From NCBI GenBank assembly GCA_963676395.1, contig OY781066.1:704001-768000 (forward strand): 64,000 nucleotides of DNA, written 5' to 3'. Of the stretch, positions 6,199 to 24,205 are shown piece by piece. Origin of the DNA: a bacterium. GTDB taxonomy: Bacteria; Fidelibacterota; Fidelibacteria; Fidelibacterales; Fidelibacteraceae. The notes beneath the pieces are model-generated. The model was not told the origin of the DNA and did not search any database. It was given only the letters and a program-made list of their open reading frames with translations. Numbering within the stretch: the first letter of the stretch is position 1; the number at the start of each line of letters is the position of its first letter. The position numbers were made by a program, and so were the translations under genes.

Positions 6199-7095
6199 AT
6201 GCAAAGAATATTTCAAGATTTCATCTATCACCTCCAGGGTGAACGACAACTGTCTCCCAATACGGTACAATCCTACCGAAAAGATATAAAGCGTTATCTC
6301 GAACATTTTAAAAGCATGGGCATCAAAGATCCAAACCTTATCCAAACCGATATGGTAATCACCTACCTTGATCAATTATCTGGTATTCCCCTGGCCCCAA
6401 CCTCTTTGGCAAGAAATCTCTCTTCCATGAGAATGTTTCATCGATTCATGATGAACGAAGGTTATGTAAGTAAGGATGTTACAGAGAATATCGATTCACC
6501 CAAGCTACCTAAACGCTTACCCAAAATTTTGGATATTGAAGATATCGAAGCGATCTTCACCGAGATCAACACCGATACGGATGCAGGAATTCGCGATAGA
6601 GCCATGCTGGAGCTCTTATATGGCTCCGGGCTGAGAATCTCAGAACTGCTGACACTAAGGTTGCCGGCTGTCATGCTAAACGAAGGCTGGATCCGTGTGT
6701 TTGGCAAAGGTTCCAAAGAAAGGATCGTTCCCTTTGGAGATGAAGCAGGTGTCTGGTTAAAGAAATATATCAAACACGTTCGTCCCATGCTGGCCGGAAG
6801 TATAAAAGCAGAAGATTATATTTTTTTAAATCGCAGTGGGGCACCACTCTCCCGAATGGGCGTTTGGAAGATCATTCAAAAATATGCTCAATTGGCACTT
6901 ATCGACAAACCCGTTTCACCGCATGTTTTCAGGCATTCGTTTGCAACCCACCTTTTAGAAGGCGGTGCCGACTTAAGAGCTGTTCAAGAAATGCTGGGAC
7001 ACTCGGATATTTCAACTACGCAGATCTATACCCATCTTGATAGAAATTATTTAAAAGAAGTTCACAAAACCTTTCACCCAAGGGAAAAACGATAA
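6199..7095 (+). CDS. xerD: Site-specific tyrosine recombinase XerD
   Basis: RDRAMLELLYGSGLRISEL, GKGSKERIVP and SPHVFRHSFATHLLEGGADLRAVQEMLGHSDISTTQIYTH; housekeeping context. Confidence 0.88.
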   Translation: MQRIFQDFIYHLQGERQLSPNTVQSYRKDIKRYLEHFKSMGIKDPNLIQTDMVITYLDQLSGIPLAPTSLARNLSSMRMFHRFMMNEGYVSKDVTENIDSPKLPKRLPKILDIEDIEAIFTEINTDTDAGIRDRAMLELLYGSGLRISELLTLRLPAVMLNEGWIRVFGKGSKERIVPFGDEAGVWLKKYIKHVRPMLAGSIKAEDYIFLNRSGAPLSRMGVWKIIQKYAQLALIDKPVSPHVFRHSFATHLLEGGADLRAVQEMLGHSDISTTQIYTHLDRNYLKEVHKTFHPREKR

Positions 7096-7738: not shown

Positions 7739-8803
7739 ATGAACGATTTTTTAGGTTACAACGAAAAAGATTTCCCTATCACTGAAATGCCCAGCGATGA
7801 TGCTATTCTTGGAAGAGTGATAGAAGAACACCGTGAACGCTACTTTGTCGCAAGCCGGGAAGGTGTTTACGAAGCGGGAGTCACCGGTAGGATCATGTAT
7901 ACATCGGAAAGCAAAGATGCTTTTCCGGCTGTTGGCGATTGGGTGTTACTTTCACCTATGGATGATCATGAGGGCATTATTCATCAAATCATTCCAAGAA
8001 AAACTGTGCTGCGCCGCCGTTCTAAAAGCAAGAAAGCCAAAGAACAGGTTATCGCGGCCAATATCGATACAGCCTTTGTGGTTATGGCCGGCAATGAAGA
8101 TTTTTCACTAAATCGACTTGAGCGCTACCTGACTATCATCTATGATGGTGGTGTAAAACCGGTAATCATCCTGAATAAAACAGATTTATTCAATGAAGAA
8201 GAAGTTCAGGAATTTGTAAATGAAATAAAAAAACGACATCCCGATGCAGAATTGATCTGGACCTCTGCATTAACGGAAAAAGGACTAAAATACATCAAGG
8301 AACACCTGTCTCCCGGAAAGACCTATGGCTTTGTAGGATCTTCAGGTGTGGGAAAATCCTCACTGATCAACCGACTTACCGGGGGTGAACGCCAAAAGGT
8401 CAACCATATTTCAGATGCAACCGATAAAGGACGCCACACTACCACATACCGTGAGTTGATCGAGCTTGAGAACGGGTCATTTCTTATCGACACACCGGGC
8501 ATGCGCGAGGTGGGGCTTTCGGCTACCGATGCCGGTTTAGAAGAAACATTTTCTGATATATATGAACTATCTTATAGCTGCCGTTTCAGTGATTGCACAC
8601 ACACAAATGAACCCGGTTGCGCCGTGCTTCAAGCTGTAAAGAGCGAAACACTTCAACAAGAGAAACTGGATAACTTTCACCACCTGAAACGTGAATCCGA
8701 TTATTACCAGATGGACGATTATGAAAAACGCATGAAAGATAAATCCTTTACAAAAATGGTAAAAGAAGTCAAACGCGTAAGAGGCTTGAAACATAAAAAG
8801 TAA
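7739..8803 (+). CDS. rsgA: Ribosome small subunit-dependent GTPase A
   Basis: Circularly permuted NKTD...GSSGVGKSS...GRHTTT...DTPG plus C-terminal CRFSDCTHTNEPGC zinc finger; ATG at 7739. Confidence 0.93.
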   Translation: MNDFLGYNEKDFPITEMPSDDAILGRVIEEHRERYFVASREGVYEAGVTGRIMYTSESKDAFPAVGDWVLLSPMDDHEGIIHQIIPRKTVLRRRSKSKKAKEQVIAANIDTAFVVMAGNEDFSLNRLERYLTIIYDGGVKPVIILNKTDLFNEEEVQEFVNEIKKRHPDAELIWTSALTEKGLKYIKEHLSPGKTYGFVGSSGVGKSSLINRLTGGERQKVNHISDATDKGRHTTTYRELIELENGSFLIDTPGMREVGLSATDAGLEETFSDIYELSYSCRFSDCTHTNEPGCAVLQAVKSETLQQEKLDNFHHLKRESDYYQMDDYEKRMKDKSFTKMVKEVKRVRGLKHKK

Positions 8804-8954
8804 AATTCGATGAATCGATAGCTCACTCATTTAATTGTTCACTCATTCGACCATTATACTATTCAAAAAATATCCTTTGGAATTCTAAGCGGCTTATCCT
8901 AATTTTATTCAACTTAAATAAATATGACATGATAAATCTTTATGGGGCGACGAA

Positions 8955-9794
8955 ATGGATAAGATCATGGAAGCTTATAGCAATTTATTAACACAAAAAC
9001 GCTACAGTCCCAATACCCAAAAAACATATATGGGATATTTTTCCGATTTCCGAAGATATTTCCGATTTAAAGACATCTATCATATTGGCAAAGATGAAAT
9101 CAATCGATATATCCTAGATCTTATTCAGACAAATAATATTTCTCCGAGTCAGCAAAATCAACGCATTAATGCAATCAAATTCTACTATGAAAAGGTTTTA
9201 GGTCGAGAGAAAGAGTATTATAACATTCAGCGACCAAAAAAAGAATATCATTTACCCAAGGTTCTAAGCAAAAAAGAAATAAAATGCATGATTCAATCAT
9301 GTGAAAACCTTAAACATAAATGTATTTTAATGATACTTTATTCGGCCGGATTAAGGCGTAGTGAATTATTAGATCTACAAATTGACGATATTGATTCCAA
9401 AAGAATGTTAATCTTGATCAAAGGTGCCAAAGGTAACAAAGACAGAATAACACTTTTATCCGAAAGGCTACTTAGCATGCTTCGGGATTACTATAAAAAA
9501 TACAAACCCGAAAAATATTTATTCGAAGGTCAAAGAGGAAATAAGTATTCAGCTTCTAGTGTTGCCAATATTCTTAAACATGCAACCCTCAAGGCAGGGA
9601 TCAGAAAAAATGTTACACCTCATATGCTTAGACATAGTTTTGCCACACATTTACTTGAACAAGGAACTGATTTAAGATATATTCAAGAGTTATTGGGCCA
9701 TAATAGCAGCAAAACAACAGAAATTTACACTCATATATCAAAAAAAACGATTACAAACATACAAAACCCTATGGATGACATGTTTGAAACATAA
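8955..9794 (+). CDS. Tyrosine recombinase/integrase, putative cassette-array integrase
   Basis: SAM-like N-terminus (YSPNTQKTY...SQQNQRINAIKFYY) and intact catalytic residues (GLRRSE, KGNKDR, HMLRH, LLGH, TEIYTH); no IntI-type insertion between KDR and HxLRH. Confidence 0.92.
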   Translation: MDKIMEAYSNLLTQKRYSPNTQKTYMGYFSDFRRYFRFKDIYHIGKDEINRYILDLIQTNNISPSQQNQRINAIKFYYEKVLGREKEYYNIQRPKKEYHLPKVLSKKEIKCMIQSCENLKHKCILMILYSAGLRRSELLDLQIDDIDSKRMLILIKGAKGNKDRITLLSERLLSMLRDYYKKYKPEKYLFEGQRGNKYSASSVANILKHATLKAGIRKNVTPHMLRHSFATHLLEQGTDLRYIQELLGHNSSKTTEIYTHISKKTITNIQNPMDDMFET

Positions 9795-9811
9795 ATGCAA
9801 AATAAACACAA

Positions 9812-9876
9812 TAAACAATACATGCCATATTGGAGATGTATACACAATAGGCATACACTAACGTTGTGCCCAATTA
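9812..9876 (+). other. Putative primary (attI-like) recombination site
   Basis: CATACACTAAC-GTTGTGCCCAAT (9852-9874) resembles the right arm of the repeats but has no full left arm; short hairpin ATGCCATATTG/CAATAGGCAT (9822-9854). Confidence 0.6.
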
Positions 9877-9896
9877 AATGAAAAGACTACATAGTT

Positions 9897-10766
9897 ATGG
9901 AAGAAGAACTTAATTCAGAGATTAAAAAGTTGATTCCAAAAGTGTATGATGATGCATTACAACCATCAGTCATTGAGATTGGCAAATCAATAAAGGAAAC
10001 TGTTAAACTCGCCTTGAAACCCTACAATGGAATAATTTGGTCAATTGATAAATCTTTCGACTGGTTAACAAACACAATATCTCAAAGAGTTGAAAACTAT
10101 AAAATCAAAAAGATAAAAGCTCCGAATATTGAGACCACAATTAAGGTTATTCAGGGAGTACAGACAACAGGAGCACTAAATGATTTTGTTCCAAGACATC
10201 TATTTGCCAATCTATTGTTTTCGGAAATAAATGCAGAATACGGACATGAAACCCATCCAGCTTATGCAGAACTTTTAAAACAATTTACTCAAGAAGAATG
10301 TAAAATTTTATGCGTCATTGCAAATAGACCTTTATCAATATATTCAACAAGTACATTAAGCGATAATTATTTTGACTATAACTACAAGGAGAAAGAAAAA
10401 ATAAGATATAGCAATGAAACTCATGATTTACAAATAAAATGTGGATTTACAGAAACTGCACCTTTAAGTCTTTACATTGACAACTTATTAAGACTAGGTA
10501 TTATAGAAAGACAATCTACCAAACATGATGAAATACCAAGCTCTACAAAAGAAGAAGCATCTGTTTATCATAGAGAACTTAAACTATTTGAGGAATATCA
10601 AAAACGATATAAAAATGATAGTCGTTGTCCAAAAAGTGTAAAAATCAGAATTGATATAATTAAACCAACATATTTTGGTCAAAACTTTTTAGGTGCAATT
10701 GGTGCCAGCCAGTTTTATGACCACTACAGTAATATTTTTATAAAGCCAGATTGGATAAAAGATTAA
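9897..10766 (+). CDS. Abi-alpha (DUF4393)-like protein, cassette 1
   Basis: N-terminal PKVYDDALQPSV.EIGK, LFANLL...HPAYAELLKQ and IDNLLRLGII patterns. Confidence 0.65.
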   Translation: MEEELNSEIKKLIPKVYDDALQPSVIEIGKSIKETVKLALKPYNGIIWSIDKSFDWLTNTISQRVENYKIKKIKAPNIETTIKVIQGVQTTGALNDFVPRHLFANLLFSEINAEYGHETHPAYAELLKQFTQEECKILCVIANRPLSIYSTSTLSDNYFDYNYKEKEKIRYSNETHDLQIKCGFTETAPLSLYIDNLLRLGIIERQSTKHDEIPSSTKEEASVYHRELKLFEEYQKRYKNDSRCPKSVKIRIDIIKPTYFGQNFLGAIGASQFYDHYSNIFIKPDWIKD

Positions 10767-10785
10767 ACCTTTAAAGAAGACTAAT

Positions 10786-11403
10786 ATGTTTTTTAAAACA
10801 CCAAACATCAAGATTGAAAAAATTGGGAATGTCGAAATCAATCCTCATTATCATCCGATTTTTGAAAAAATTGCTTACGATACGTTTCAAAAATTTATAG
10901 AAAAGGAAAACAAGTTACATCAGGTACAATCTTTATCTGACCAAAAGGTTAAAAAAACAAAGTTTTTAAAAACGATTGACCTACTTGGAAAAATCATATC
11001 AATTATTTCGGGTATTGCAATAGTTGTATTTGTGATTTTTTTACTTGCTGGTAAAACATCAATTGGTAGTGTGCAAGTATCAACTCTTTTAACAGTTATT
11101 AGTTTCACTTTGATTGGTGGAATTATTTCTATTGGCGGTGTGCAAATGTTTTCTTTTAATGCCTCGTTGAGAAAGAGTGAAAATAAAATAAGAGAACACC
11201 TAAATCGAAATTTGGAATGTCCCTTTGATAGAATACTAAAAACTGATAACCCAAATTGGCACAATAGACAGCCGGGAAATCCAGATTTTTGTATGCGCTG
11301 TCCATTAGGGATTGATATTTCAGGTAATGTAGAGGGTGGACTAATACATGTTTGTAAAGTATACATGAATTATCATAAAAGGTGGTTAGACAACAAACAA
11401 TAA
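10786..11403 (+). CDS. Hypothetical two-TM protein with Cys-rich C-terminus, cassette 1
   Basis: Two hydrophobic segments; CPF...FCMRCP...HVC; stop codon abuts repeat 1. Confidence 0.6.
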   Translation: MFFKTPNIKIEKIGNVEINPHYHPIFEKIAYDTFQKFIEKENKLHQVQSLSDQKVKKTKFLKTIDLLGKIISIISGIAIVVFVIFLLAGKTSIGSVQVSTLLTVISFTLIGGIISIGGVQMFSFNASLRKSENKIREHLNRNLECPFDRILKTDNPNWHNRQPGNPDFCMRCPLGIDISGNVEGGLIHVCKVYMNYHKRWLDNKQ

Positions 11404-11546
11404 CTGGGCACAACATTTTGTATAAGTAATGGCAGGCGATGTAGTAAATATCAATGTTTGTAGCGCGCTCAAACTGCGTAGCGGTTTGACAGGAAACTAC
11501 CACGCAATCTGCCACTACTCATACAATTTACCGTTGTGTGTAATGC
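11401..11546 (+). repeat. attC-like cassette site, copy 1
   Basis: TAACTGGGCACAAC...TTGTATAAGTAATGGCAG...CTGCCACTACTCATACAA...GTTGTGTGTAATGC. Confidence 0.9.
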
Positions 11547-11562
11547 AAAAAAAAGACAGTAC

Positions 11563-14328
11563 ATGAAATTTAAAACCCAACATTTAAGAAATATTATAGA
11601 TGCTAACAATGATAATCGATTAGCGATTTTTGTTGGAGCTGGAGTTTCAAAAAATTCTGAAACTAAAGGACTAAAACTTCCAATATGGCAGGATTTAATT
11701 GATGATTTGAAGAAAGATTTAGAATTAACAAGTGAGACAGACTTTTTAAAAATAGCACAACTTTATTATCTGGAATTTAAAGAGTATTCATATCTTAAAA
11801 AACTAAAAAAATATTTTCCTGATAACATAAGACCTTCTTCAATACACAAACAAATATTTGATTTAAATCCTCAAGTAATTATTACAACTAATTGGGATAC
11901 AATTCTTGAGAAAACGATAGAAGAAAATGCATATATCTATGATGTAATTCGTTGTGATGAAGATTTAGTTAAATCCACAATTCAAAAGAAAGTGATTAAA
12001 ATGCATGGAGATTTTAAAAATCACAATATAGTTTTCAAAGAAGATGATTACTTGAATTATCAATATAATTTTCCATTAATCGAAAATTACGTAAAAAGCA
12101 TTTTGTCTACTCACACTGTACTTTTTTTTGGTTATTCATATAATGATATCGATTTCAAACAAATAATGAAATGGTTGCAAAATTATTCAAAAGTACAACC
12201 GCCAAGATATTTAACTGTCTTTTATGAAAATTCAACACAAAATAAGTATTTAGAAAATCATGGAATAACCACATTTGTGCTTGATGAACCCAATAGTTCA
12301 ATGAATCTTCAAAGCGACTATACTGAGAATACAAAGTATTTCTTAGATTTAATAAAAGATGATGAAAGAATTAACTTCTTAAAAACTGAGAATGACATTA
12401 TCGATTTTGTTTTCAATAAATTAAAGGTGCTTTCTGAACTCAATGGTATTTTAATTGAGCAAATACAAACCTCATTGACTAATTGTGGTTTTCTGTATGA
12501 TGATAGCAATAAAACAATATTGGAATTTCGAGATAAAATACTCACATATGACTTAAATAAAGAAAAGAGAAATATATATAAGGAATTTGTAAAAATACTA
12601 AACGCGCAAGACGATAAAGGATTATCAAACAAAACTTTATATAGTATTTTTGAAATTTTAAGTAAAGCCAATATACAAGGAATTGTTATCACTGAAGACG
12701 ACTTATCAACTAGAGAAAAGAAATATATAGTTCTAGATGATTATTTAACAGATAAAGAATTCAATCTTGAATCAAAGTACCTTGATTTTGATTTTTCATT
12801 TGAGGACAAATCAACAAATGATATTTATGAATTGCTTCAAAAATCATTCATTTTATATCAGCTTGAAGATTACGAAAAAGCATATGAGATTGTTGAAAAA
12901 ACAATAATACAGTGTTTAAAGCAAAAAAATTATACTGTTTTATTTATTTCAATGTTTAATAAAAATGTTCTTCTCTGGAAATTGAAATATGGCTTTTTTC
13001 AAAATAGAAAAGTATATGAAGATATTGAAGAATATAATTTAGAAGAGAAGTTTAATCAGCTTCCAAAAGATTTACAAGGAGCACTTAAGCCAATTTACAA
13101 CTTCTTAAACTCTTGTTATTTATATATATTTGCATATAGAATATCAGAAGAATTAAATAAAAAAGAGGGATCTAAAAAAACTATAGAATCTGGTGGTTTT
13201 GTTTTAAATTCTAATATTACCGAATCTTCTTCAAAGCATAAAAATCTAATTTCATTTATACTCCGCAACGGAATAATTTTAGAAGGGAGAAGCGAATTTC
13301 AAAGTATCAATAAATATTTCCTGAAAATTTCTATTATAAGACAGGTTCAGAATAAAGCAACTACATTTAACGAAATAGAGTTTTTTTCAGCGATAAAGTA
13401 TCTTTCGAATAAAGAATTAAAACATTTACTATCTGAATTTTACAAATATGATTCTGACAAAAAGGGCAAATTTGAAATTTCAGAAGAAAATAAAAATTGG
13501 TTAATTAATAAGGTGTTGATAAATCTTGTAAAAAGATATATAAACTCCGACAATGCGTTTAATACATTTGAAAAATACTTAGAAAATACAATCTTCTTAC
13601 TTTCATTAACAAAACTATCAGATGATGAAATTTCAAAAATTTTAGAAAGCTTTAATAACATTATCGATAAAGCTAAAAACACAATTGGAATTTACGAATC
13701 AATAAATCTTTTCTTGGGAAACCAATATAATCTTCATAATACATCCATTAATGAAAGTTCATTACTTAATTTGATAAAATCTATCATTAATAAATTTGTA
13801 AGCAAGCAATATAATGGATACGATTTTCATGCAATTACACGCAATGAAATTTCGAATTTATATGGTTATGCAAGAGAACAAAAAGCAATATTTAAAGAAA
13901 AAGCATTGATTAATAAATTAATTGATGCATCAAAAGAACTACCAATAGAAGAACAATTAAATATTTCAGAATCTCTTCTTCTTAGTATTTATGATATTTC
14001 TACTGATGAAATTAAGACCAAAATTAAAGAATATATTTTGAGCATAAAATCAAGTGAAACAAAAGAAAAACATGATTATTTAATATTTGAGCTCATCTTA
14101 GTTATTCGTGATTTTAAAAATTTAGAAACAGATTTAATCAAAGAGCTTGAAGAATATTTTGAACCATATAAAGACTCAAAGTCATTTTCTTCAATTTGGT
14201 ATTCAATAGATAGTCAGATAGATTATTTAATAAAAGAAAAGCAACTAACTCAGCTCAAAGAAGTTTCTTCAACGATAAAAACGTTAATAGAAAACTTTAA
14301 GAAAAGTGAAAGATTTTCAATACTTTAA
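11563..14328 (+). CDS. SIR2-domain NADase, DSR2-like defence protein, cassette 2
   Basis: FVGAGVS, ITTNWD, KMHGD and KEDDYLNY..NFPLI...THTVLFFGYS, plus long helical C-terminus; ATG at 11563 because the GTG at 11536 lies in the repeat. Confidence 0.82.
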   Translation: MKFKTQHLRNIIDANNDNRLAIFVGAGVSKNSETKGLKLPIWQDLIDDLKKDLELTSETDFLKIAQLYYLEFKEYSYLKKLKKYFPDNIRPSSIHKQIFDLNPQVIITTNWDTILEKTIEENAYIYDVIRCDEDLVKSTIQKKVIKMHGDFKNHNIVFKEDDYLNYQYNFPLIENYVKSILSTHTVLFFGYSYNDIDFKQIMKWLQNYSKVQPPRYLTVFYENSTQNKYLENHGITTFVLDEPNSSMNLQSDYTENTKYFLDLIKDDERINFLKTENDIIDFVFNKLKVLSELNGILIEQIQTSLTNCGFLYDDSNKTILEFRDKILTYDLNKEKRNIYKEFVKILNAQDDKGLSNKTLYSIFEILSKANIQGIVITEDDLSTREKKYIVLDDYLTDKEFNLESKYLDFDFSFEDKSTNDIYELLQKSFILYQLEDYEKAYEIVEKTIIQCLKQKNYTVLFISMFNKNVLLWKLKYGFFQNRKVYEDIEEYNLEEKFNQLPKDLQGALKPIYNFLNSCYLYIFAYRISEELNKKEGSKKTIESGGFVLNSNITESSSKHKNLISFILRNGIILEGRSEFQSINKYFLKISIIRQVQNKATTFNEIEFFSAIKYLSNKELKHLLSEFYKYDSDKKGKFEISEENKNWLINKVLINLVKRYINSDNAFNTFEKYLENTIFLLSLTKLSDDEISKILESFNNIIDKAKNTIGIYESINLFLGNQYNLHNTSINESSLLNLIKSIINKFVSKQYNGYDFHAITRNEISNLYGYAREQKAIFKEKALINKLIDASKELPIEEQLNISESLLLSIYDISTDEIKTKIKEYILSIKSSETKEKHDYLIFELILVIRDFKNLETDLIKELEEYFEPYKDSKSFSSIWYSIDSQIDYLIKEKQLTQLKEVSSTIKTLIENFKKSERFSIL

Positions 14329-14339
14329 TGTGAAAGAAA

Positions 14340-14485
14340 GCACTACACACAACATTTTGTATAAGTAATGGCAGACAATGTGGTAAATATCAAGGTTTGT
14401 AACCCGCTCCAACTGCGTAGCTGTTTGACAGGGAAGTGCTACGCAATCTGCCACTACTCATACAATTTACCGTTGGCTGCAATTG
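14340..14485 (+). repeat. attC-like cassette site, copy 2
   Basis: GCACTACACACAAC...same stem as copy 1...GTTGGCTGCAATTG. Confidence 0.9.
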
Positions 14486-14504
14486 AAATGAAACTCATCA
14501 CAAC

Positions 14505-15671
14505 ATGAAAATAAATAAACTTAGACTTGAAGGTGTTGGAGGAATAGAATTTATTGAATTAATTTTCAATAGCCAGATGAATCTTTTCTGTGGCCCTAAT
14601 GGAATTGGCAAGACAACAATTCTCGAATCCATAGCACACATTTTTTCAAATGGTCGAACGAACATTTTAAAACGGAATGTAAATAGTGCAAACAGCAAGA
14701 TTTGGATTCAAATTGATGATAGTGGACAAACAAAAGAGAAAGAAATTCATTTTGATACATTTGTGCCTGAAGTTCCAACAGAAATTAGACAAGCACTAAA
14801 TCAATACTCAAATCAAATTCTATCTTTAAAAACTAGTAGGATTTTTCAATACCAGTCATTGCAAGCCGTTAATAAAGATTCTTTAAAGGAAACACATTTG
14901 ATTTGGAATGATGCTATCAATGGCATTCAATTAGCCGATGTGAAAAACTGGTTTGTAAATAGATATTTATACTCAGCACATCCAGGAGCTTTAACAGAAG
15001 AACAACTTGCGAATTATGAATTAGCAAAATCTTGTTTTTCATTTTTAAATGAAGAGTTTTCTTTTTCAAAGGTTGATGCCTCTTCAAATGAAATTATGGT
15101 CAGTACTCCAAGTGGTACAATTTATTATGAATATTTATCATCTGGTTTTAAATCAATAATCTCAATATTATTTGGAATAATAAAGGAAATTGAATTTAGA
15201 TTTACTAATCCAAGAATAAAAGCTGTTGATTTTGAGGGGATAATTCTAATTGATGAAATAGAACTTCACTTACATCCAGAGTGGCAAGAAAAGGTTGCAA
15301 GTGTACTCTTAAAGGCATTTCCAAAAGCCCAGTTTTTTGCAACAACTCATAGTCCACATATCATTCAGACAGCGTTACCAAATCAAATAATTGCCTTGGA
15401 GGCAAGTGATAAGAAAACAATCCAGAGAGAGCTTCCTGATACTGAATTTGGATTTCAAGGATGGACAATAGAAGAAGTATTAACTGATGTAATGGGAATG
15501 AAAGATACTAGGACCGAATTATTTAATCTGCTTATGTACGATTTTCAGATAAATATAGATAAAGAAAATTATGAAGGTGCATTAAAGATATTTGAAACTG
15601 TAGATTCTTTATTGCATCCTCACAACGAACTTAGAAAACTTTTAAAATTTCAACTCGCTGGAATTAAATAG
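14505..15671 (+). CDS. ABC/AAA ATPase, PtuA (Septu)-like, cassette 3
   Basis: Walker A GPNGIGKT, signature LSSGFK, Walker B ILIDEIELHLHPEWQ and TTHSPH. Confidence 0.8.
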   Translation: MKINKLRLEGVGGIEFIELIFNSQMNLFCGPNGIGKTTILESIAHIFSNGRTNILKRNVNSANSKIWIQIDDSGQTKEKEIHFDTFVPEVPTEIRQALNQYSNQILSLKTSRIFQYQSLQAVNKDSLKETHLIWNDAINGIQLADVKNWFVNRYLYSAHPGALTEEQLANYELAKSCFSFLNEEFSFSKVDASSNEIMVSTPSGTIYYEYLSSGFKSIISILFGIIKEIEFRFTNPRIKAVDFEGIILIDEIELHLHPEWQEKVASVLLKAFPKAQFFATTHSPHIIQTALPNQIIALEASDKKTIQRELPDTEFGFQGWTIEEVLTDVMGMKDTRTELFNLLMYDFQINIDKENYEGALKIFETVDSLLHPHNELRKLLKFQLAGIK

Positions 15672-15678
15672 AAATTAA

Positions 15679-16422
15679 ATGATTAAGCTTAATAGACTTT
15701 TTACACCTCTCGGATTATCTCCAGCTTTTATTAAAGCACAAACACTTGAATTTAAAACAAATGGAACAAATGTATGGAATGTTAACTGGTTAAAAGAATC
15801 GCTACTACAGTTAAGTTTTCAAAAATGTGCCTATTGTGAATGTTCTTTGAGCGTTGAAAGTAATTATATGGAAGTTGAGCATTTTGAAGACAAAAGTGAT
15901 TACCCAGATAAAGTTTTAATTTGGGAAAACCTTATTCCTTCTTGCAAGAAATGTAATGGTTCGAAAAGTACTCACGATGTAAATAAAGAACCAATTGTTA
16001 ATCCATTTATCGATAATCCCTCTGATGAATTTTATTTTAGATTATACAAGATAAAAGGAATTAAAGAAAAGGGTATTCGAACAGAATCCATATTAAATTT
16101 AAATCACCCTGAAAGAGCAATAAAAAAACGATTTGAAATTGGTGAAGCCTTAGAAAACTTAATTGAACAAGCATTTGAACGGTTGATTAATTTTGAGGAA
16201 AGTTCAACCGTACTTCGAAGAAACAAGCTAAATAATATTGTTGAAGAAATTCTACAAGAGAGTCAACCTGAATCTATATATTCTGCAACTTGTGCAACAA
16301 TTCTTCATTCATGTTTGAGATATAATGAAATCAAGATAAAAATGGAAAAATTAGGTTTATGGACTTCAGAATTTGATAATTTACATGAAAAATCGAAAGA
16401 AATTGTACTAGAAATGAAATAA
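15679..16422 (+). CDS. HNH endonuclease, PtuB (Septu)-like, cassette 3
   Basis: KCAYCE...EVEHF...WENLIPSCKKCN..K; directly after the ATPase. Confidence 0.8.
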   Translation: MIKLNRLFTPLGLSPAFIKAQTLEFKTNGTNVWNVNWLKESLLQLSFQKCAYCECSLSVESNYMEVEHFEDKSDYPDKVLIWENLIPSCKKCNGSKSTHDVNKEPIVNPFIDNPSDEFYFRLYKIKGIKEKGIRTESILNLNHPERAIKKRFEIGEALENLIEQAFERLINFEESSTVLRRNKLNNIVEEILQESQPESIYSATCATILHSCLRYNEIKIKMEKLGLWTSEFDNLHEKSKEIVLEMK

Positions 16423-16566
16423 CAACTGCTGCCAACAATGTATATACAAAATAGGCGAGATAGTAGTAAATTCAAGGGTTGTAGCCCGCTTCAAAATTGT
16501 GACGGTTTGACAAGTTTGAAGCCCGCAATCGCCTACTTTGCATATACTTACCGTTGGCAACAATAC
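16423..16566 (+). repeat. attC-like cassette site, copy 3
   Basis: CAACTGCTGCCAAC-AAT-GTATATACAAAATAGGCGA...TCGCCTACTTTGCATATAC-TTACC-GTTGGCAACAATAC. Confidence 0.9.
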
Positions 16567-16598
16567 AGGACACACCTCAGTTGTAAAGATTATGAAAT

Positions 16599-19115
16599 AT
16601 GATTGAAAAGAAAATTGACAAATCTATTCTCCTTGATGATTTGGAGCTATTTAAATATTTAAAGGATAATGATAGTGAATTCGTATCGTTAATTGATGAT
16701 ATAAATGCCAAAGTTAAGAACCTGCTCAATAGTGGTATACCAAAAGTATTTTCATCATACACCTTACATGACATTGAACATTCATATCGGATAATAAAGT
16801 ATATGAGTGACATTATTCCTGATATTTCAAAATTAAATGAACTTGAAATTACTATTCTGATACTTGTTGGATTGTTGCATGATGTTGGAATGGCTGTGTC
16901 CACAGAGGATTTAGAGTTAATTAAAAATGATAATTACCCTCATTTTGATGTGAAGTTTTCTGCAACTAAAAAATATGTTGGAGGTGATGAAAACTTAGCA
17001 TTGCAGGAATATATAAGAATGTATCATGCTCAAATGTCGGGAATATACATTGAAGAAAAGTTAAAAGACAAGCTGAAAATTTCTGAAAACTCTACCTTAT
17101 CTTTCATGGATGATGTTATTAAAATCTGTAGAAGTCATACTGAGTCATATGAATGGATTAAGCAAAATTTGAATCCGTACACTGTATTAGGTGATTATGA
17201 ATACAATTCCTTATATATTTCTCACTTATTGAGACTTGGAGACATCCTAGATATTGATGAAAAAAGAACTCCTTTAAGCTTGTATAACTTGATAGCTCCT
17301 AAAGGTAAAAGTGAAGAGGAATGGGATAAGCATTTCATAATTCAAAATTATGAGAAAATTGAAATAAATCCGAAATCAAAATTAAAGCAGATTGCTTTTC
17401 ATGGTCATTGTTCTAACGCACATATACACCGTAAATTACTAGAATTTTTTGATTGGGTTAATGAGGAACTTTTGAATGCATTAGCATCAACGAATAATAT
17501 GCAAGAGCAGTATAGGCTAAATCTCGAAAATTCAATCCTTCAAAATATTGTAACCGAGGGCTACACATTTTCTGATTATAAAATGAAACTCGATTTTGAA
17601 GCAATTAGTTCTTTATTGATGGGGGAAAAAATATATGGAGGAAAAGAACTAGGATTAAGGGAGCTTATTCAAAATTCGATAGATGCATGCCGATATAGGA
17701 CAGAATTAGAAAACATAGGAAAAGAATTTGGCGAAATAGATTATGAGCCTAAAATAAAAGTTATTGTAGACAGTAAAAACCAGATTATTTCAATAAAGGA
17801 TAATGGGGTAGGTATGTCAATTGGTGTAATAAAGAATCACTTCTTGAATATTGGCAAATCTTATTATAATTCATCCGAATTCTTGTTGCAAGATGTCGAG
17901 TATAAACCAATAGGAAATTTTGGAATTGGGTTCCTTGCATGCTTTATGTTATCTAATAATATTAAAGTAGTGACTAGATATTATAATAGCCAAGACAAAT
18001 ATATTATTGAACTTGAAAAAGGAAACGAATTTACATCTATGTTGAAATCAAATGACGTAAGATTTGAAGGGACGGAAGTTGTTTTTAATCATGATGAATT
18101 TATGAGTGTTTTCAATGATAAAATTGAAGATATATCAAATTTTCTGAAAAAATATTTTATTACTGATGGCATTGAATTAGAACTTATAAATGTAGATAAG
18201 AAAGAACGGATTTCTATCGAAAATAAATTTGACAAAAACATAACACCAGATAAAGGATTTCTAATTGATTTAAGTTCTTATTTAAAGGAAATAGAAGGCT
18301 ATGCGATTGTTAAACACCGCAATAGCTTTATTCACACTTTAGATGATATTGGCTTTGAAGGTGAACTTTATTTTTATGATTATGAAAAGGGATTATATGA
18401 AGTAGAGGATTTATCGAAAGTTGATATTGATTTTTATATACTTAACAATAGAATTAGATATTTCAATATTCCATTAGTTGAAAATGAAAATGTATCTGAT
18501 TACCTCAATGGTTTAAGATATACTGATGATGATGTATCAGAAGTAATTGATAAAATGGTCAATGACTTAAGATGGATTTCTATACTCCCTCAAAGAGATA
18601 CTGATTCAATGATGTCTGACCAAATTATAGATAATGGAGATACTTTTTTTGACAATTTAGAGTTCAGCGACTTAGTAAAATTAGGTCACGATGACACATG
18701 TAAAACAAAGATGTTTGAGAAAGAGCAAAATATATTTGAAGGAGAAAAAAGTAACTTATATATGCCTTTTGAGCAAAAAGAAGACAATTACTGGAGATAC
18801 TATTATAGAAAAAAAGAAAAACAAAATTTGTATGTAAGAAATGTTTTAATCAAGGACTTTGATTTTTCTTTTAATACTAAAGCATCCATTTTTGACATAA
18901 ATGATGTAATAGTCAATGTACAATCAAAAAAAGTTGTTCCTGATATTTCTAGAAATAATTTGGATTCAGAAACAGAAAATAGACTTAACTATTCGATAAG
19001 CAGAGCAATTCATATTGGATTACTTAATAGTGAAAAATTGTTAGATAATGAAAGAGAAACTCTTAAGTTATTTATTGATGAGTTTTATACTGACAAAACT
19101 GAATTTGATAAATAA
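16599..19115 (+). CDS. HD-CE domain plus HSP90-like GHKL ATPase, cassette 4
   Basis: YTLHDIEHS..LLHDVGM..LRLGDILD HD motifs; LRELIQNSIDA, DNGVGM and GNFGIGFLACFM GHKL motifs. Confidence 0.8.
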   Translation: MIEKKIDKSILLDDLELFKYLKDNDSEFVSLIDDINAKVKNLLNSGIPKVFSSYTLHDIEHSYRIIKYMSDIIPDISKLNELEITILILVGLLHDVGMAVSTEDLELIKNDNYPHFDVKFSATKKYVGGDENLALQEYIRMYHAQMSGIYIEEKLKDKLKISENSTLSFMDDVIKICRSHTESYEWIKQNLNPYTVLGDYEYNSLYISHLLRLGDILDIDEKRTPLSLYNLIAPKGKSEEEWDKHFIIQNYEKIEINPKSKLKQIAFHGHCSNAHIHRKLLEFFDWVNEELLNALASTNNMQEQYRLNLENSILQNIVTEGYTFSDYKMKLDFEAISSLLMGEKIYGGKELGLRELIQNSIDACRYRTELENIGKEFGEIDYEPKIKVIVDSKNQIISIKDNGVGMSIGVIKNHFLNIGKSYYNSSEFLLQDVEYKPIGNFGIGFLACFMLSNNIKVVTRYYNSQDKYIIELEKGNEFTSMLKSNDVRFEGTEVVFNHDEFMSVFNDKIEDISNFLKKYFITDGIELELINVDKKERISIENKFDKNITPDKGFLIDLSSYLKEIEGYAIVKHRNSFIHTLDDIGFEGELYFYDYEKGLYEVEDLSKVDIDFYILNNRIRYFNIPLVENENVSDYLNGLRYTDDDVSEVIDKMVNDLRWISILPQRDTDSMMSDQIIDNGDTFFDNLEFSDLVKLGHDDTCKTKMFEKEQNIFEGEKSNLYMPFEQKEDNYWRYYYRKKEKQNLYVRNVLIKDFDFSFNTKASIFDINDVIVNVQSKKVVPDISRNNLDSETENRLNYSISRAIHIGLLNSEKLLDNERETLKLFIDEFYTDKTEFDK

Positions 19116-19260
19116 GTACTGTTGGCAACAATGTGTATAGTGCATAAGGGTTTCAGAGGTTTTCGAGCATTATCACCCACATCAATTTTGGGTGGTAACT
19201 TGACAGGTTTGAAGCCCGCAACCCCTTACGACACCATACACTCAACGTTAGCGGTAATTT
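19116..19260 (+). repeat. attC-like cassette site, copy 4
   Basis: GTACTGTTGGCAAC-AAT-GTGTATAGTGCATAAGGG...CCCTTACGACACCATACAC-TCAAC-GTTAGCGGTAATTT. Confidence 0.9.
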
Positions 19261-19295
19261 AAACTCCAGAAATTGGACCTAATAACATCAAAATT

Positions 19296-19985
19296 TTGAA
19301 AGAAAAAGACACATGCTGTTACTGTGGTAAGAACTCTGAGTCAAGAGACCATATCCCATCCAAAAATTTATTGGAAAAACCATTTCCAGATAATTTATTA
19401 ACAGTACCGTCTTGCATAAAGTGTAATCAATCATTTTCATTAGACGAAGAATATTTTCTAAATGTATTAGTTGAGATTTCAAACAATCCGACTTTAATCG
19501 CAAAAAAAGAGCCTAACGGTAATGTTTATAAAGCACGAAAGCGGTCAAAAAAATTAAATGATAGAATTGAAAATTCATTGATTCAGTTAGAAGATGGAAA
19601 AATCTATTTTAGAATGGAAGAAAACAGAATTAAAAAAGTTATAGAGAAAAATGCACTTGGACTCTACTTCCATAAATACCATAAACTTGCTAACCTGAAT
19701 AAATTTAATTGTACTGGATTCTATCCGTTTTCAGTTGAAGAAACAAGACCTGCAGAAATTTTCATGTTGACTTATTCTGAAAAATTTAGAGCCAAAAGAT
19801 GGACAACAATTCAAGAGAATGTTTTTTCATATATAGTTGTACGAGATTGGAGGAGAGGAAAAAAATTGACAATGATTTTTCATATTCATAACACAGTATG
19901 GTGTATTATTGAAATTCCATTTCCAACATCAACGAAAAGATTAAAAAGACAAAAGAATTCTCATACTGAAAAAATAAATTTATGA
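19296..19985 (+). CDS. HNH-like endonuclease
   Basis: CCYCG...RDHIPSK...TVPSCIKCN; TTG start. Confidence 0.7.
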   Translation: MKEKDTCCYCGKNSESRDHIPSKNLLEKPFPDNLLTVPSCIKCNQSFSLDEEYFLNVLVEISNNPTLIAKKEPNGNVYKARKRSKKLNDRIENSLIQLEDGKIYFRMEENRIKKVIEKNALGLYFHKYHKLANLNKFNCTGFYPFSVEETRPAEIFMLTYSEKFRAKRWTTIQENVFSYIVVRDWRRGKKLTMIFHIHNTVWCIIEIPFPTSTKRLKRQKNSHTEKINL

Positions 19986-20398
19986 ATAAACCACAAAAAT
20001 ACATTATTTCATTTCTACCTGCTGCAATATTTTTGTTCAACCAAATATTGATAATGTTTATTCGACCGATTATTCCTGCCAATAGATTTGAGTTACTATC
20101 AGAAATATTTGGTTGGTTACCCAACTATTTAGCTTCAGTCGGATTTGTTCTTATGAGTATGCTCCTATTAATAATTATAAAGGAATTAAAGCTGGATAAA
20201 AAGTACGCACGTTATTATAATATATATATGATTTTTATATCAGTGATTGCATTATTTGGTTTTATATGGTGGGAAAATCAACAGAAAAACAACTCGATGA
20301 TATATGATTTAAAAGATATTTATGCAACAGTTTGCGGCGTTATTACTGGATATTCAATATTTTTAATATTATACTTTAAACATAAATTCAACAACTAA
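19982..20398 (+). CDS. Hypothetical four-TM membrane protein
   Basis: Four hydrophobic segments; WLPNYLA and D..D..AT..G patterns. Confidence 0.6.
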   Translation: MNKPQKYIISFLPAAIFLFNQILIMFIRPIIPANRFELLSEIFGWLPNYLASVGFVLMSMLLLIIIKELKLDKKYARYYNIYMIFISVIALFGFIWWENQQKNNSMIYDLKDIYATVCGVITGYSIFLILYFKHKFNN

Positions 20399-20448
20399 AA
20401 GATATTAATTCTGATAAATTAACGAACAAGTTGACTTTAAATGACAAA

Positions 20449-20593
20449 CACCAGCATACAACAATGTGTATAATTCATAAGGGTTTCAGAGGTTTTCGAT
20501 CGGTTTCACCCGAATCAATTTTGGGTGGTAACTTGATAAGTTTGAAGCCCACAATCCCTTACGAAATCATACACTTAACGTTAGCGTGTATTA
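20449..20593 (+). repeat. attC-like cassette site, copy 5
   Basis: Core highly similar to copy 4: ATACAAC-AAT-GTGTATAATTCATAAGGG...CCCTTACGAAATCATACAC-TTAAC-GTTAGCGTG. Confidence 0.88.
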
Positions 20594-20645
20594 CCACAAC
20601 AGAGACATAGATCGCAAAGTTTCTTTATAGGAATATTTAGCTAAA

Positions 20646-21089
20646 ATGAGAATTGAGAAAATTATCAATAACAAAAAGAAATACCTTGATTTATTGCTGT
20701 TAGCGGATGAGTCAGAGGATATGATTGACAGATATTTGGAAAGTGGAGATATGTTTGCACTATTCGATGATGACGTTAAAACTGTTTGTGTTGTTGCTGC
20801 AATAGATAAAGAAACTTGCGAATTGAAAAACATAGCAACTTATGAGAAATATCAAGGTAGAGGATATGCTAAAGCATTAATAAATTATATTTCTAATTTT
20901 TACAAAAACGATTATAAAACAATGCAACTCGGAACAGGCGATATCCCAGCAATTTTGTCATTTTATGAAAATTGCGGATTCAAAATATCACATCGATTAA
21001 AGAATTTTTTTACTGACAATTATGACCATCCAATGTTTGAAGACGGAATACAGCTTATAGATATGGTTTATCTAAAGAAAAAATTATAA
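20646..21089 (+). CDS. GNAT family acetyltransferase
   Basis: [15 protein letters not shown]...YQGRGYAK and FYENCGF motifs. Confidence 0.88.
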
Positions 21090-21105
21090 TAGCTAAATTA
21101 TTAAG

Positions 21106-21285
21106 ATGAAATCCATTGATGTAAAACAAGCAATAGATAGTGATGTCGAAAGAACAACCCGGTTATTTTATGATACAATTCAGAATGTCAATATAAGGGA
21201 TTATTCCCAGGAAGAGGTTGACGATTGGTCATCATGGAAAACTGATACAAATAAGTGCTTGGATAAAATGAAATTGAGAAATTAA
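21106..21285 (+). pseudogene. Truncated YafP-like GNAT (N-terminal 59 aa)
   Basis: Manual translation MKSIDVKQAIDSDVERTTRLFYDTIQNVNIRDYSQEEVDDWS... stops before the acetyl-CoA motif. Confidence 0.6.
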
Positions 21286-21340
21286 TTAATGAATATTCAA
21301 AAAATTAAATTACCGGCATAACAGGTGAACTATATAAGAC

Positions 21341-22339
21341 ATGAGATTACAAATAAAACATAAAGAATTGAAGAGATTGAAAAAAAGAACAGGATTTACC
21401 ATTACTATTTTTGTTGCAATTATGAATGTTATTACAATACATGCGCAAACCAGGTCACTTAAAGAAACTGATTTAATTTGTTCAAATAATGAAAAACCTC
21501 ATGTCGCATTTTCTTTTGATGATGGTTCAACAAAAGACAAACTTACTTACAAAAATTCGGAATGGAATTCGATGATACGAAAACAACTGAAGGATAATCA
21601 TATTCAAGCAGTTTGGTTTGTTGCGGCAAAAGGAATGGATAACGACAAAGGTAAACAGTTGTTGGAAAAGTGGAACAAAGATGGCCATCTGATCGCAAAT
21701 CACACGTATAGCCATTTCAATTACAATGATTCTTTAATGACTTGTAAAGCATATACCAAAGATATACTGAAATGCGATTCATTGATAAGCAGTTATACAA
21801 ATTATAAAAAAATAGTTCGCTTTCCGTATTTAAACGGAGGTAACACTATCTCGAAACGAGACAGCTTGCTTGATTTTCTTCAACAAAATGATTATCGGCA
21901 AGGATGGGTAACTATTGATAATTGTGAATGGTATATAAATATGAGATTGATGAATCGTTTAAAAGAAAATCCTGATGCCGATTTTAGTGGATTTGGAGCG
22001 TATTACGTTAATCATATTTTCGAAATGGCACAACATTACAATAAGCTTTCAACTCAGATTAATCAACGGCAAATAACACACTCTCTCTTATTGCATTTCA
22101 ATCTGACTTCAGCACTGTTTTTAAATGATTTGATTGAAAAATTCAGAAAAGAAGGATGGATAATTGATAATTACAGCGAAGCAATGAATGACCCGGTTTA
22201 TTCAGGTCAACCTATTGCAATACCATCCGAACAAAGTATAATTTGGATGCAAGCAAAGCAAAAAGGTGGATTTGAATTAGATTACGATGAAGAAAACATC
22301 AAACATCAGGAAGACAAAATGGCTAAATTGGGATTATAA
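21341..22339 (+). CDS. Polysaccharide deacetylase (NodB-like)
   Basis: FSFDDG, IANHTYSH, RFPYL and LLLH motifs; start uncertain. Confidence 0.85.
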   Translation: MRLQIKHKELKRLKKRTGFTITIFVAIMNVITIHAQTRSLKETDLICSNNEKPHVAFSFDDGSTKDKLTYKNSEWNSMIRKQLKDNHIQAVWFVAAKGMDNDKGKQLLEKWNKDGHLIANHTYSHFNYNDSLMTCKAYTKDILKCDSLISSYTNYKKIVRFPYLNGGNTISKRDSLLDFLQQNDYRQGWVTIDNCEWYINMRLMNRLKENPDADFSGFGAYYVNHIFEMAQHYNKLSTQINQRQITHSLLLHFNLTSALFLNDLIEKFRKEGWIIDNYSEAMNDPVYSGQPIAIPSEQSIIWMQAKQKGGFELDYDEENIKHQEDKMAKLGL

Positions 22340-22356
22340 AAATTACTCCCAATACT

Positions 22357-22656
22357 ATGCTTGATTTCGGATCATCACAAAATCCATTGGTAACAAGTGT
22401 ACATCATCAATCAGTAAAGAAAACAGGGGAAAATTTCCGGGTAATTGCAACGTCATTAGATAGAAAAGTCGTAGAAGCTATTGCCAATACAAAATTTAAG
22501 AATGTTTACGGCGTTCAGTTTCATCCGGAGTTTTCAACTTTATATAAACAGAAAGAGTTTAGAAATTCAAAAAACAATATTGTTTCATTTAACGATAATG
22601 ATAAACAATTTCTTAAACATTTTTGGAAAGATTTCAGTTTAAGATTATATGCTTAA
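22357..22656 (+). pseudogene. C-terminal fragment of peptidase C26 / gamma-glutamyl hydrolase
   Basis: VTSVHHQSV...VEAI...GVQFHPE present; nucleophile-containing N-terminal half absent. Confidence 0.7.
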
Positions 22657-22757
22657 AAAACAAAGAAAACGATGGGCATGTCCATCATGTGGTGGTGTCG
22701 TTTATTTTTATCATTACAGATGTAGTAAATGTGATAAAACTGTAGATGTGTGATTTT

Positions 22758-22915
22758 CCACATCGCCTAACAGCGAATATGCTCTACGGCTTCGCCTTGG
22801 CCTTCTTCAAATTAACCCTTTGAATATTTTCTAAAAAATTATGATATTACTCTATAGAATATATTCACACCCACAAAGGGCTGAGTTTACTTCATATTTT
22901 CGTTAACGGCAATTA
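22758..22915 (+). repeat. Divergent attC-like site, copy 6
   Basis: GCCTAAC (22765-71)..GAATATG...CATATTTTC-GTTAACGGCAAT (GTT at 22902); interior unrelated to copies 1-5. Confidence 0.55.
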
Positions 22916-22931
22916 AACAAGAGAGACAAAC

Positions 22932-24113
22932 ATGACACAGAGAACACTTACTTTACTCCTCATTTTACTCTTAAGCTTCATTGGAACTGAGAGTTTGAAA
23001 GCACAGCAAAACACAGTCAAGCAAGATGAAACTATTTTTGTTTGGGGCGGAGATATTAACACAAAGTTTGTCCAATATGTCGCTGATCTGACAAAAAAAG
23101 AACATCCCAAAATCTGTTACTTACCAACGGCAAGTGCAGACAACCCGGATAATATTAAATATTGGGAAAATATATGTAATAGGTTACAATTAGATACTCT
23201 AATTCTAAAAGTGTGGGTAAGTTCTTCAGATAAAAATCAATCATTTGAAGACATCCTTCTGAACTCTGATGCCATCGTGGTTGGCGGGGGTAATACCTTG
23301 AATATGCTGGGAATTTGGAAAGCGCAAGGCATAGATAATATTTTGAAAAAAGCATTAAAAAATGGAATAATTTTATCGGGAGGAAGTGCCGGTTCAATAT
23401 GTTGGTTTCAGAACGGTATCAGCGATTCACGCCCTGTCAACTTAAGTATTGTCAAAGGCTTGGGTTTTTTACCTTTTAGCAATTGCCCGCATTACTCACA
23501 AGAATCAAGGAAAGACTTATATCATCAAATGATAAAAAACAGGAAAATGAATCCGGGTTATGCAACTGATGAGCTATCCGGAATCCTTTTCAAAAATGGG
23601 AAAGCTGTAAAATCCATCAGCCAAAGCGACCTACACAAGGCTTATTTTGTAAATCGTAAAAAAGGAATAATTAAAGAGACTAAACTCAAATCAGACTTTT
23701 TACTTAAGAAAAATGCTCTTCCTGAAGGCTCTTATTCCTCCCAATCCATAAAAAAGAAAATTAATGATCTATTAGATTCCAATGACAGTTCCTCGCCAAT
23801 GAATGCGTGTATTTCTGACATAAAATCCATAAGATTAAACAAAGAGAACATGAGTGAATCGGCAAAGAAAAAAGTGTTGGATATGGGTATCGAAAAAATA
23901 TTCATTTACCAAAATAAAATAGCTGGAATTGTTAACAACGCCTACCTTGACTCTTTTGGATATGGCATGTGGTATTATTATAACTGCAACGGTATTTGGA
24001 AAAGTATGGGAGAAGACATAGGCGGAAAAACAATATTTGAAAGTGAAATTACATTTCGGGAAAAAGCAAAAACAATTATCAAAAAAGCTGAAAATAAATT
24101 AAACTGCCGCTAA
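22932..24113 (+). CDS. Secreted peptidase E (S51)-like protein
   Basis: Signal peptide; LPTAS, VGGGNTLNML, GGSAGS and CPHY motifs; stop codon falls in the TAAC core of the next site. Confidence 0.85.
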   Translation: MTQRTLTLLLILLLSFIGTESLKAQQNTVKQDETIFVWGGDINTKFVQYVADLTKKEHPKICYLPTASADNPDNIKYWENICNRLQLDTLILKVWVSSSDKNQSFEDILLNSDAIVVGGGNTLNMLGIWKAQGIDNILKKALKNGIILSGGSAGSICWFQNGISDSRPVNLSIVKGLGFLPFSNCPHYSQESRKDLYHQMIKNRKMNPGYATDELSGILFKNGKAVKSISQSDLHKAYFVNRKKGIIKETKLKSDFLLKKNALPEGSYSSQSIKKKINDLLDSNDSSSPMNACISDIKSIRLNKENMSESAKKKVLDMGIEKIFIYQNKIAGIVNNAYLDSFGYGMWYYYNCNGIWKSMGEDIGGKTIFESEITFREKAKTIIKKAENKLNCR

Positions 24114-24205
24114 CATTTTGTTTAAGCAAAAGCCGGGAAATACCGCACACTCCAACAATTTACTGTTGATAGCAAGTGCAGCAGAGCCACAGAGTACTTA
24201 AACAA
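24101..24205 (+). repeat. Degenerate attC-like site, copy 7 (right GTT core lost)
   Basis: AAACTGCCGCTAAC-ATT-TTGTTTAAG ... CTTAAACAA. Confidence 0.55.

Follow-up and report, generated by a model that had tools for sequence, protein, structure and literature searches.

The stretch of DNA considered here, hereafter the window, comprises 64,000 nucleotides (nt) of contig OY781066.1 (positions 704,001 to 768,000) from a Marinimicrobia-like bacterium of the Fidelibacteraceae, and all coordinates without further mark count from its first letter. Downstream of a gene for a tyrosine recombinase it carries five imperfect hairpin repeats. These repeats are likely to be the recombination sites of an integron-like cassette array run by that recombinase, which is related to the integron integrase IntI and lacks its additional I2 helix, with the bottom strand of the sites being the one used. 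In classical integrons, according to PMC5027507, PMC7790495 and PMC13108822, IntI binds the folded bottom strand of the attC site and cleaves it at AAC, the extrahelical bases of this strand are read partly via I2, and a single strand exchange is resolved by replication. An initial annotation of the window, made from the letters alone, had suggested that the present system uses wobble or mismatch geometry for the choice of strand. The attC-like folded sites, the integrase without I2 and the position-fixed mismatches on which that suggestion was built are all borne out below, but one of the mismatch positions, 10 nt after the AAC core, is not general.

By direct reading and alignment, the repeats are hairpins of ~140 nt, bounded by AAC and GTT, that lie between genes at ~11404-20593. 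Their placements by a covariance model (R1, see below) are as follows:

Site 1: 11404..11546, + strand, AAC at 11412-11414 and GTT at 11533-11535
Site 2: 14343..14485, + strand, AAC at 14351-14353 and GTT at 14472-14474
Site 3: 16426..16566, + strand, AAC at 16434-16436 and GTT at 16553-16555
Site 4: 19119..19260, + strand, AAC at 19127-19129 and GTT at 19247-19249, one bulged base in the right arm
Site 5: 20452..20593, + strand, AAC at 20460-20462 and GTT at 20580-20582, one bulged base in the right arm

The left half of a site is made of AAC, a 3-nt spacer, a 6-bp stem, A, a 4-bp stem, A and a stem of at least 7 bp, and the right half of the complementary arm with a C facing each A, a 5-7-nt spacer and GTT; between them lies a loop of ~60-70 nt in the window sites. 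The inner stems fall into the copy groups 1/2, 3 and 4/5, which differ in sequence and keep the pairing. The stems quoted in the initial annotation are correct in all five copies, A stands opposite C both 10 and 15 nt after AAC in 5/5 copies as it had stated, and the bulge that it assigned to copies 4 and 5 is one extra right-arm base in each (alignment column 130). In 101/118 related sites the outer and inner boxes are separated by an unpaired spacer with 3 nt facing 5-7 nt. A scan of positions 8500-22000 against Rfam gave no match at E up to 1. A loop motif, TTGAYARG...CRCAAYC, is conserved in the sites of this genome but not across genomes; it was therefore treated as shared ancestry, and its interpretation as a promoter or protein site was dropped.

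The host genome, a single 2.34-Mb contig that is 95% complete, was searched with an nhmmer profile and then with a covariance model, which gave 13 sites in 4 clusters (5 in the window, 2 at ~1.105 Mb, 1 at ~1.136 Mb and 5 at ~1.835 Mb); the clusters at 1.105, 1.136 and 1.835 Mb (L078-L080) have no nearby recombinase. Judged by those relatives of its GcvPA that carry a name, the host is Marinimicrobia-like. The covariance model R1 was built from 11 of the own-genome sites and matched 74 sites in 68 collected loci with integrase homologues, mostly of Bacteroidota, and a second model (R2), built on these 74 sites, raised the total to 125 sites (77 sources), 120 of them outside the window and 5 within it. 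Besides relatives of the host, the contigs in which sites lie beside homologues are labelled Melioribacter, Scalindua, Desulfuromonas and Bacteroidota. When 119 sites of the 68 loci were placed relative to the integrase, 100 were downstream on the same strand, 17 were upstream on the opposite strand and 2 were placed otherwise. A site is present in 24/28 integrase loci with at least 3 kb of downstream sequence and in 17/18 with at least 8 kb. Moreover, the contig ends no more than 300 bp after the integrase in 19 of the 68 contigs, and such early ends may represent assembly breaks at variable arrays.

The pairing is kept across genomes. Over the 74 other-genome sites 90.4% of the cells in stem columns are paired versus 62.5% after shuffling (0/500 shuffles reach the observed value), counts that come from alignments fitted to covariance models of such sites and hence favour structure; sliding the structure along the same alignment left at most 43.4% of the cells paired. 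Changes on both sides were seen in 20 of the 21 stem pairs (378 cells), so that the covariation first noticed among the window copies extends to homologous sites. What is conserved across genomes is AACA, CGTT, the inner A with its partner C, and the outer C and A, but not the loop.

The mismatches are fixed to different degrees. Counting from AAC, A/C is found at both +10 and +15 in 11/11 aligned own-genome sites. Among 118 complete sites outside the window, A/C is retained at +15 in 116, but at +10 there are 51 sites with A/C, 53 with a Watson-Crick pair and 3 with T.G; only the +15 position is thus nearly invariant. The state at +10 follows lineage, with two Chitinophagaceae arrays having pairs there. 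Counted by raw position, free of any alignment, the nucleotide at +15 is A in 83% of 108 sites, and 82/91 well-formed sites have A/C. The outer mismatch, noted earlier as ACT against AAT, is a real C/A located 8 nt outside GTT, and it is general, since 68/88 adjacent site pairs have it. In the 21 ordinary paired columns (1514 cells), top-strand G.T (43) and A/C (51) are balanced, so the bias at the mismatches is specific to position and not a general strand bias.

Both strands were folded as single-stranded DNA (ssDNA). The bottom strand is the more stable one in 73/85 sites (60/72 foreign and 13/13 own), with a mean minimum free energy of -17.9 kcal/mol versus -15.6 kcal/mol for the top strand (a difference of 2.3; Wilcoxon p 6e-13), and all five window copies agree with the strand preference that had been proposed for them.

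The units between the sites behave like integron cassettes. When the 10-nt left flank of a site was compared with the right flank of the previous site, the mean complementarity was 7.25/10 and at least 7 positions matched in 66/88 pairs, as against 7/120 for the site's own flank, 4/83 for the next site and 94/3657 for random sites of other loci. The pairing frequency is 0.83-0.92 at +1 to +6 of the flank, 0.52 at +7, 0.02 at +8 and 0.66-0.73 at +9 to +11. Flanks that are a whole cassette apart can pair only once the cassette is excised or circular, and such complementarity is the mark of circular permutation that integron cassettes bear. In the window, it is visible by eye for cassettes 1-4, whose left flanks are complementary to the preceding right flanks.

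An attI-like site directly follows the integrase gene:

attI-like site: 9795..9875, + strand, ...GCATACACTAAC then GTT (9863-9865) then GTGCCCAATT

It is a right-arm-like half of a site, and 9/10 positions of its 3' flank can pair with the left flank of site 1. In other hosts, six Flavobacteriaceae loci are identical up to CCAATTGTT and divergent beyond it, and three metagenome-assembled genomes of Bacteroidota are identical up to AAGTAAGTT and divergent beyond it; further loci show the same behaviour. Conserved sequence that turns divergent at GTT marks GTT as the insertion point, and insertion there, together with a first cassette that has no leading hairpin, assigns the crossover to the GTT, or right, side of each site.

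With cassette ends set inside GTT by analogy with integrons, the array consists of the following units (protein lengths in amino acids, aa):

Cassette 1: 9864..11533, + strand, an Abi_alpha/PDC-S47 protein and a 205-aa protein
Cassette 2: 11534..14472, + strand, a 930-aa protein with a ThsA-like SIR2 domain
Cassette 3: 14473..16553, + strand, Septu, with PtuA of 388 aa (PADLOC 517 bits) and PtuB of 247 aa (292 bits)
Cassette 4: 16554..19247, + strand, an 838-aa HD-CE + HATPase_c_3 protein (gene 16599-19115) with no PADLOC match
Cassette 5: 19248..20580, + strand, two overlapping genes (19296-20398) for proteins of 229 and 138 aa with no Pfam or PADLOC family

By these family assignments, the cargo is anti-phage defence (Septu, SIR2, Abi). 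The gene for the 838-aa protein makes up a whole cassette, with Septu on one side and the genes of no known family on the other; as it has no PADLOC match, it is a candidate new defence gene. None of the 11 proteins of the window's array region turns up again, either in the other loci or in the rest of the genome. The guanine-plus-cytosine (GC) content is 0.25-0.34 over ~9-26 kb versus 0.36-0.45 in the flanks. In genomes of the same genus only the integrase gene is alike (64-71% DNA identity) and the neighbourhoods differ, and no empty site was obtained from them.

The integrase stands next to a housekeeping recombinase gene:

Integrase, tyrosine recombinase of 279 aa: 8955..9794, + strand, Pfam PF00589 and PF13495
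Housekeeping xerD: 6199-7095, same strand as the array, 362 bits to TIGR02225

The integrase passes the XerA model NF040815 (237.9 bits, cut-off 220) and fails the IntI model TIGR02249 (209.8 bits, cut-off 265). The match to TIGR02249 breaks in two and leaves out model positions 182-238, ~67 residues (IntI4 ~181-247) are passed over in the alignment with PDB 2a3v, and ~31 + 11 residues around I2 are missing relative to 4 canonical IntI, which come from relatives that share the host's order or phylum; the earlier statement that the enzyme lacks the IntI insertion is therefore right. Its catalytic residues (R, K, HxxR, H and Y) are all kept. In addition, a C-terminal [S/N]PxD tail is common to the short integrases and IntI, and the Xer proteins do not have it. 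In a quick maximum-likelihood tree of 50 recombinases, with 9 Xer proteins and one outlier and with the truncated rows L061, L071 and L075 omitted, the 36 insertion-less integrases and the 4 IntI stand apart from Xer with a support of 100 in the Shimodaira-Hasegawa-like approximate likelihood-ratio test (SH-aLRT); IntI forms a clade (SH-aLRT 100) and the short integrases group weakly (SH-aLRT 82). The family is large, with 7997 of 7999 scored candidates passing E 1e-20. The best 120 members have 269-293 aa and are at least 67% identical, and the few of these that are named after an organism span several phyla. The host genome has a second Xer besides XerD, and no canonical IntI was found in it. 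Canonical IntI (432-443 bits) is present in the 4 relatives mentioned above, and the covariance models found no such site on these 4 contigs, which end near intI; similarly, no array came to light when L087 and L088, two of these contigs, were searched for repeats.

Several further observations concern the array, its relatives and the integrase. The low-GC stretch continues past the last site at 20594-24178 with genes for a GNAT protein, a polysaccharide deacetylase, a 99-aa glutamine amidotransferase fragment and a peptidase S51, and where the low-GC region ends there is one weak match:

Possible sixth-site remnant: 24104..24178, + strand, 75 nt, R1 14.7 bits, E 0.38

The left flank of this remnant matches the right flank of site 4 at 8/10 positions, better than that of site 5. 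In the Flavobacteriaceae attI regions of L013, L015 and L017 (~10808-10880), a perfect 24-nt palindrome, GGATATAGACAATTGTCTATATCC, stands directly before GTT and is sometimes preceded by a partial repeat of itself; folding of the attI, or binding of a dimer to it, is conceivable. Two sites of one Bacteroidales chromosome (L042:14525-14657 and L042:17917-18049) have GTC in place of GTT and identical next 10 nt; perhaps the same element went into both at their crossover points. A Chitinophagaceae array (L040:11257-20558) has about two dozen model matches in 10 kb, many of its sites being ~200 nt long, and Watson-Crick pairs at +10. Among public read runs containing the window stretch, one holds 98% of the sampled words and five hold 5-10%. 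The xerD gene lies only 1.9 kb upstream of the integrase, with a gene for an M50 peptidase-like protein and rsgA between them. PDB 9i5v chain 14 (401 residues), which is named 'ribosome-associated translation inhibitor RaiA', matches the integrase at E 1.6e-25; its name looks mislabelled, or the chain looks to be a fusion.

Taken together, these features can be put into the following scheme. The mobile unit would be a cassette that runs from just past the preceding GTT through its own hairpin site. In the excised circle its two ends would pair and complete an outer stem of ~14 bp (AAC-N7-AAC with GTT-N7-ATT), and the site folded in this way would resemble a recombinase core, with an outer and an inner arm of ~12 bp each around an unpaired spacer that is mostly 3 nt versus 5-7 nt, and with the long variable loop beyond the inner arm. 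The outer C/A lies 11 positions from the spacer and the inner A/C 12. On our reading of the geometry the two mismatches would be dyad-related, each with C on the strand that runs 5' to 3' towards the spacer and A opposite, and each of two bound monomers would then meet an identical feature. On the folded bottom strand, these positions would be T.G wobbles. The fixed mismatches may replace the extrahelical bases that I2 reads in classical integrons and, along with the asymmetric spacer, may bias folding and recognition to the bottom strand, which would be cleaved at its AAC, opposite the top-strand GTT. If the enzyme works as IntI does, a crossover on the GTT side implies bottom-strand cleavage at AAC. 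This strand is favoured both by the side of the junctions and by the folding energies; that wobble geometry sets the choice is a conjecture.

Several facts weigh against this scheme. The tendency of the fitted alignments to favour structure has been mentioned. In the phylogeny, the Xer root was chosen by us, only 4 IntI were included and archaeal XerA was absent. The Watson-Crick pairs at +10 in 53/118 sites leave only +15 and the outer +8 as general mismatches, and the asymmetric spacer, which is as conserved, could set polarity alone. Cassette 5 has a left flank without a complementary partner in the window. At two sites in L080, near 1,833,771 and 1,836,964, there is no pairing between the left arm and the right one. 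This pair of sites has one common left arm, with right arms like those of site 1 and site 3 of the window, and they look like chimeras from recombination within the conserved loop. According to GC skew (origin ~1.19 Mb), the bottom strand is on the lagging-strand template in all 4 clusters of the host; classical chromosomal integrons have a conserved orientation that is opposite to these (PMC13108822). The orientation here fits an excision-prone layout or, alternatively, a system that works on the top strand. Elsewhere, at 24 loci, local skew (a crude measure) is mixed, with 9 negative and 15 positive values.

In one alternative, in our view unlikely, the array is as described but acts through its top strand, folded. 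The A/C of that strand could equally be the landmark, as easily flipped bases that mimic extrahelical ones, since a true mismatch is nearer to an unpaired base than a stacked T.G wobble is. The top strand is more stable in 12/85 sites, and in all 4 host clusters it is on the leading-strand template, the orientation of the recombined strand of classical chromosomal integrons (PMC13108822). However, the bottom strand folds better in the other 73, the replication pattern is not general in view of the mixed loci elsewhere, and IntI-type cleavage of the top strand at AAC predicts left-side junctions and a first cassette with a full hairpin, but the cassette and attI junctions are at the GTT (right) side. 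We give a similarly low probability to double-stranded, Xer-like recombination at the right arm, the spacer and the GTT flank, where the complementarity would serve transcript ends or cassette insulation. It would suit an attI that is a plain duplex site of the same layout, an integrase above the XerA cut-off (NF040815) and the absence of I2, which is held to confer single-strand recombination (PMC7790495). It leaves unexplained, however, the covariation of 21 pairs with little sequence conservation, the complementarity of flanks one cassette apart and the position-fixed mismatches; moreover, A/C weakens the hairpins in the mRNA sense, which speaks against a role as RNA.

It seems very improbable that we are dealing with mere RNA elements or dispersed miniature repeats that have nothing to do with the recombinase. 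The repeats are intergenic and structured, lie on the coding-strand side and include a few solitary or decayed copies; but the wobbles are on the antisense strand, and there is no Rfam match at E up to 1. Moreover, the strong linkage of position and orientation to the integrase, the cassette flank signature and the attI junctions point to recombination. Equally remote is an ordinary integron on which a canonical IntI encoded elsewhere acts in trans. The 4 relatives with canonical IntI, one of which (G013) has one such site and yielded no insertion-less integrase in the search, would agree with it; on the other hand, the host genome has no canonical IntI, the 4 contigs with canonical IntI that were examined have no such sites, and the sites track the insertion-less integrase. 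The I2-less integrase acting on folded bottom strands is thus the explanation that we prefer.

The finding bears on a view of the field, as set out in PMC7790495, that the gain of the I2 helix enabled recombination of folded single strands, that no other protein has I2 and that no intermediates are known. The integron surveys that we found choose integrases by the additional domain (I2), and IntegronFinder 2 recorded almost no integrons in Bacteroidetes (PMC9024848). Our literature search, which mostly covered sources outside subscription journals, found no account of integron arrays that lack I2, of how these hairpins are built, of their fixed mismatches or of the permuted cassettes, though the supplementary motif logos of the rAID-1 paper may coincide in part with the conserved boxes; the rAID-1 arrays (see below) are partial prior art. 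In the present case, arrays that show every sequence hallmark of integron cassettes go together, in many genomes, with an I2-less enzyme closely related to IntI. As a tentative proposal, somewhat less likely than not, these arrays form a second, I2-independent class of integrons, sister to IntI, spread in the FCB (Fibrobacterota, Chlorobiota and Bacteroidota) group and other phyla and overlooked by I2-based surveys, that reads two dyad-related T.G wobble (or A/C) landmarks, one per arm. If this is true, hairpin recombination predates the I2 insertion or arose without it. The arrays suggest structure-specific recombination by a smaller enzyme, and in practical terms they are a big store of mobile genes for defence, in phyla where surveys list hardly any integrons (PMC9024848). 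Moreover, the fixed mismatches provide a mutable handle on hairpin recognition and strand choice, and the origin of integron chemistry therefore becomes directly testable.

Among known systems, classical integrons are close in layout. They share a recombinase beside attI, co-oriented cassettes, imperfect AAC...GTT hairpins that are conserved in structure and not in sequence, an unpaired central spacer, a variable loop, a crossover at GTT and an outer right flank of each site that comes from the next cassette. Their divergent layout is the arrangement of the 17 upstream, opposite-strand sites, and integrase-less attC clusters are likewise known from them, which recalls the three clusters of this genome without a recombinase. 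Defence cargo is also shared with chromosomal integrons, as reported in 10.1101/2024.07.02.601686 and 10.1101/2024.07.02.601719. On the other hand, IntI has I2 whereas the integrase here does not and falls below the TIGR02249 cut-off, attC has extrahelical bases whereas the sites here have a base-opposed A/C mismatch in each arm, and the outer stem is ~14 bp here versus 7 bp there. Unlike in classical integrons, the integrase is mostly co-oriented with the array and the cassettes are large (up to 2.9 kb).

The rAID-1 (recombinase-associated acquired interbacterial defence) arrays known from gut Bacteroidales have been described as "reminiscent of integrons" (Ross 2019, 10.1101/471110). The window array has their layout, with an XerD-like recombinase 5' of at least 2 co-oriented genes of no more than 41% GC (0.25-0.34 here), and their cargo is defensive too (10.1101/471110 and 10.1101/2025.05.03.651265). 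The recombinase of rAID-1 is defined by at least 44% identity to a B. fragilis reference; among the loci collected here, Bacteroidales homologues are 45-48% identical to the window integrase. However, rAID-1 is described as confined to Bacteroidales and as carrying short orphan type VI secretion system (T6SS) immunity genes, whereas the present host is Marinimicrobia-like. The cargo here is Septu, SIR2 and Abi and not T6SS immunity genes, although no search was aimed at immunity-gene families.

Another parallel is the integration of CTX phage by XerC/D, in which an I2-less Xer-type enzyme acts on a folded single-stranded hairpin. There, the whole phage integrates at chromosomal dif via host housekeeping enzymes, and one strand exchange takes place, which is resolved by replication. 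It differs in that there are no cassette arrays and no dedicated integrase. That Xer recombinases without I2 can use folded ssDNA, as in CTX phage, is also stated in PMC7790495. Finally, the integrase differs from a chromosome-dimer resolvase, as the host has its own XerD and the 279-aa gene heads a cassette array.

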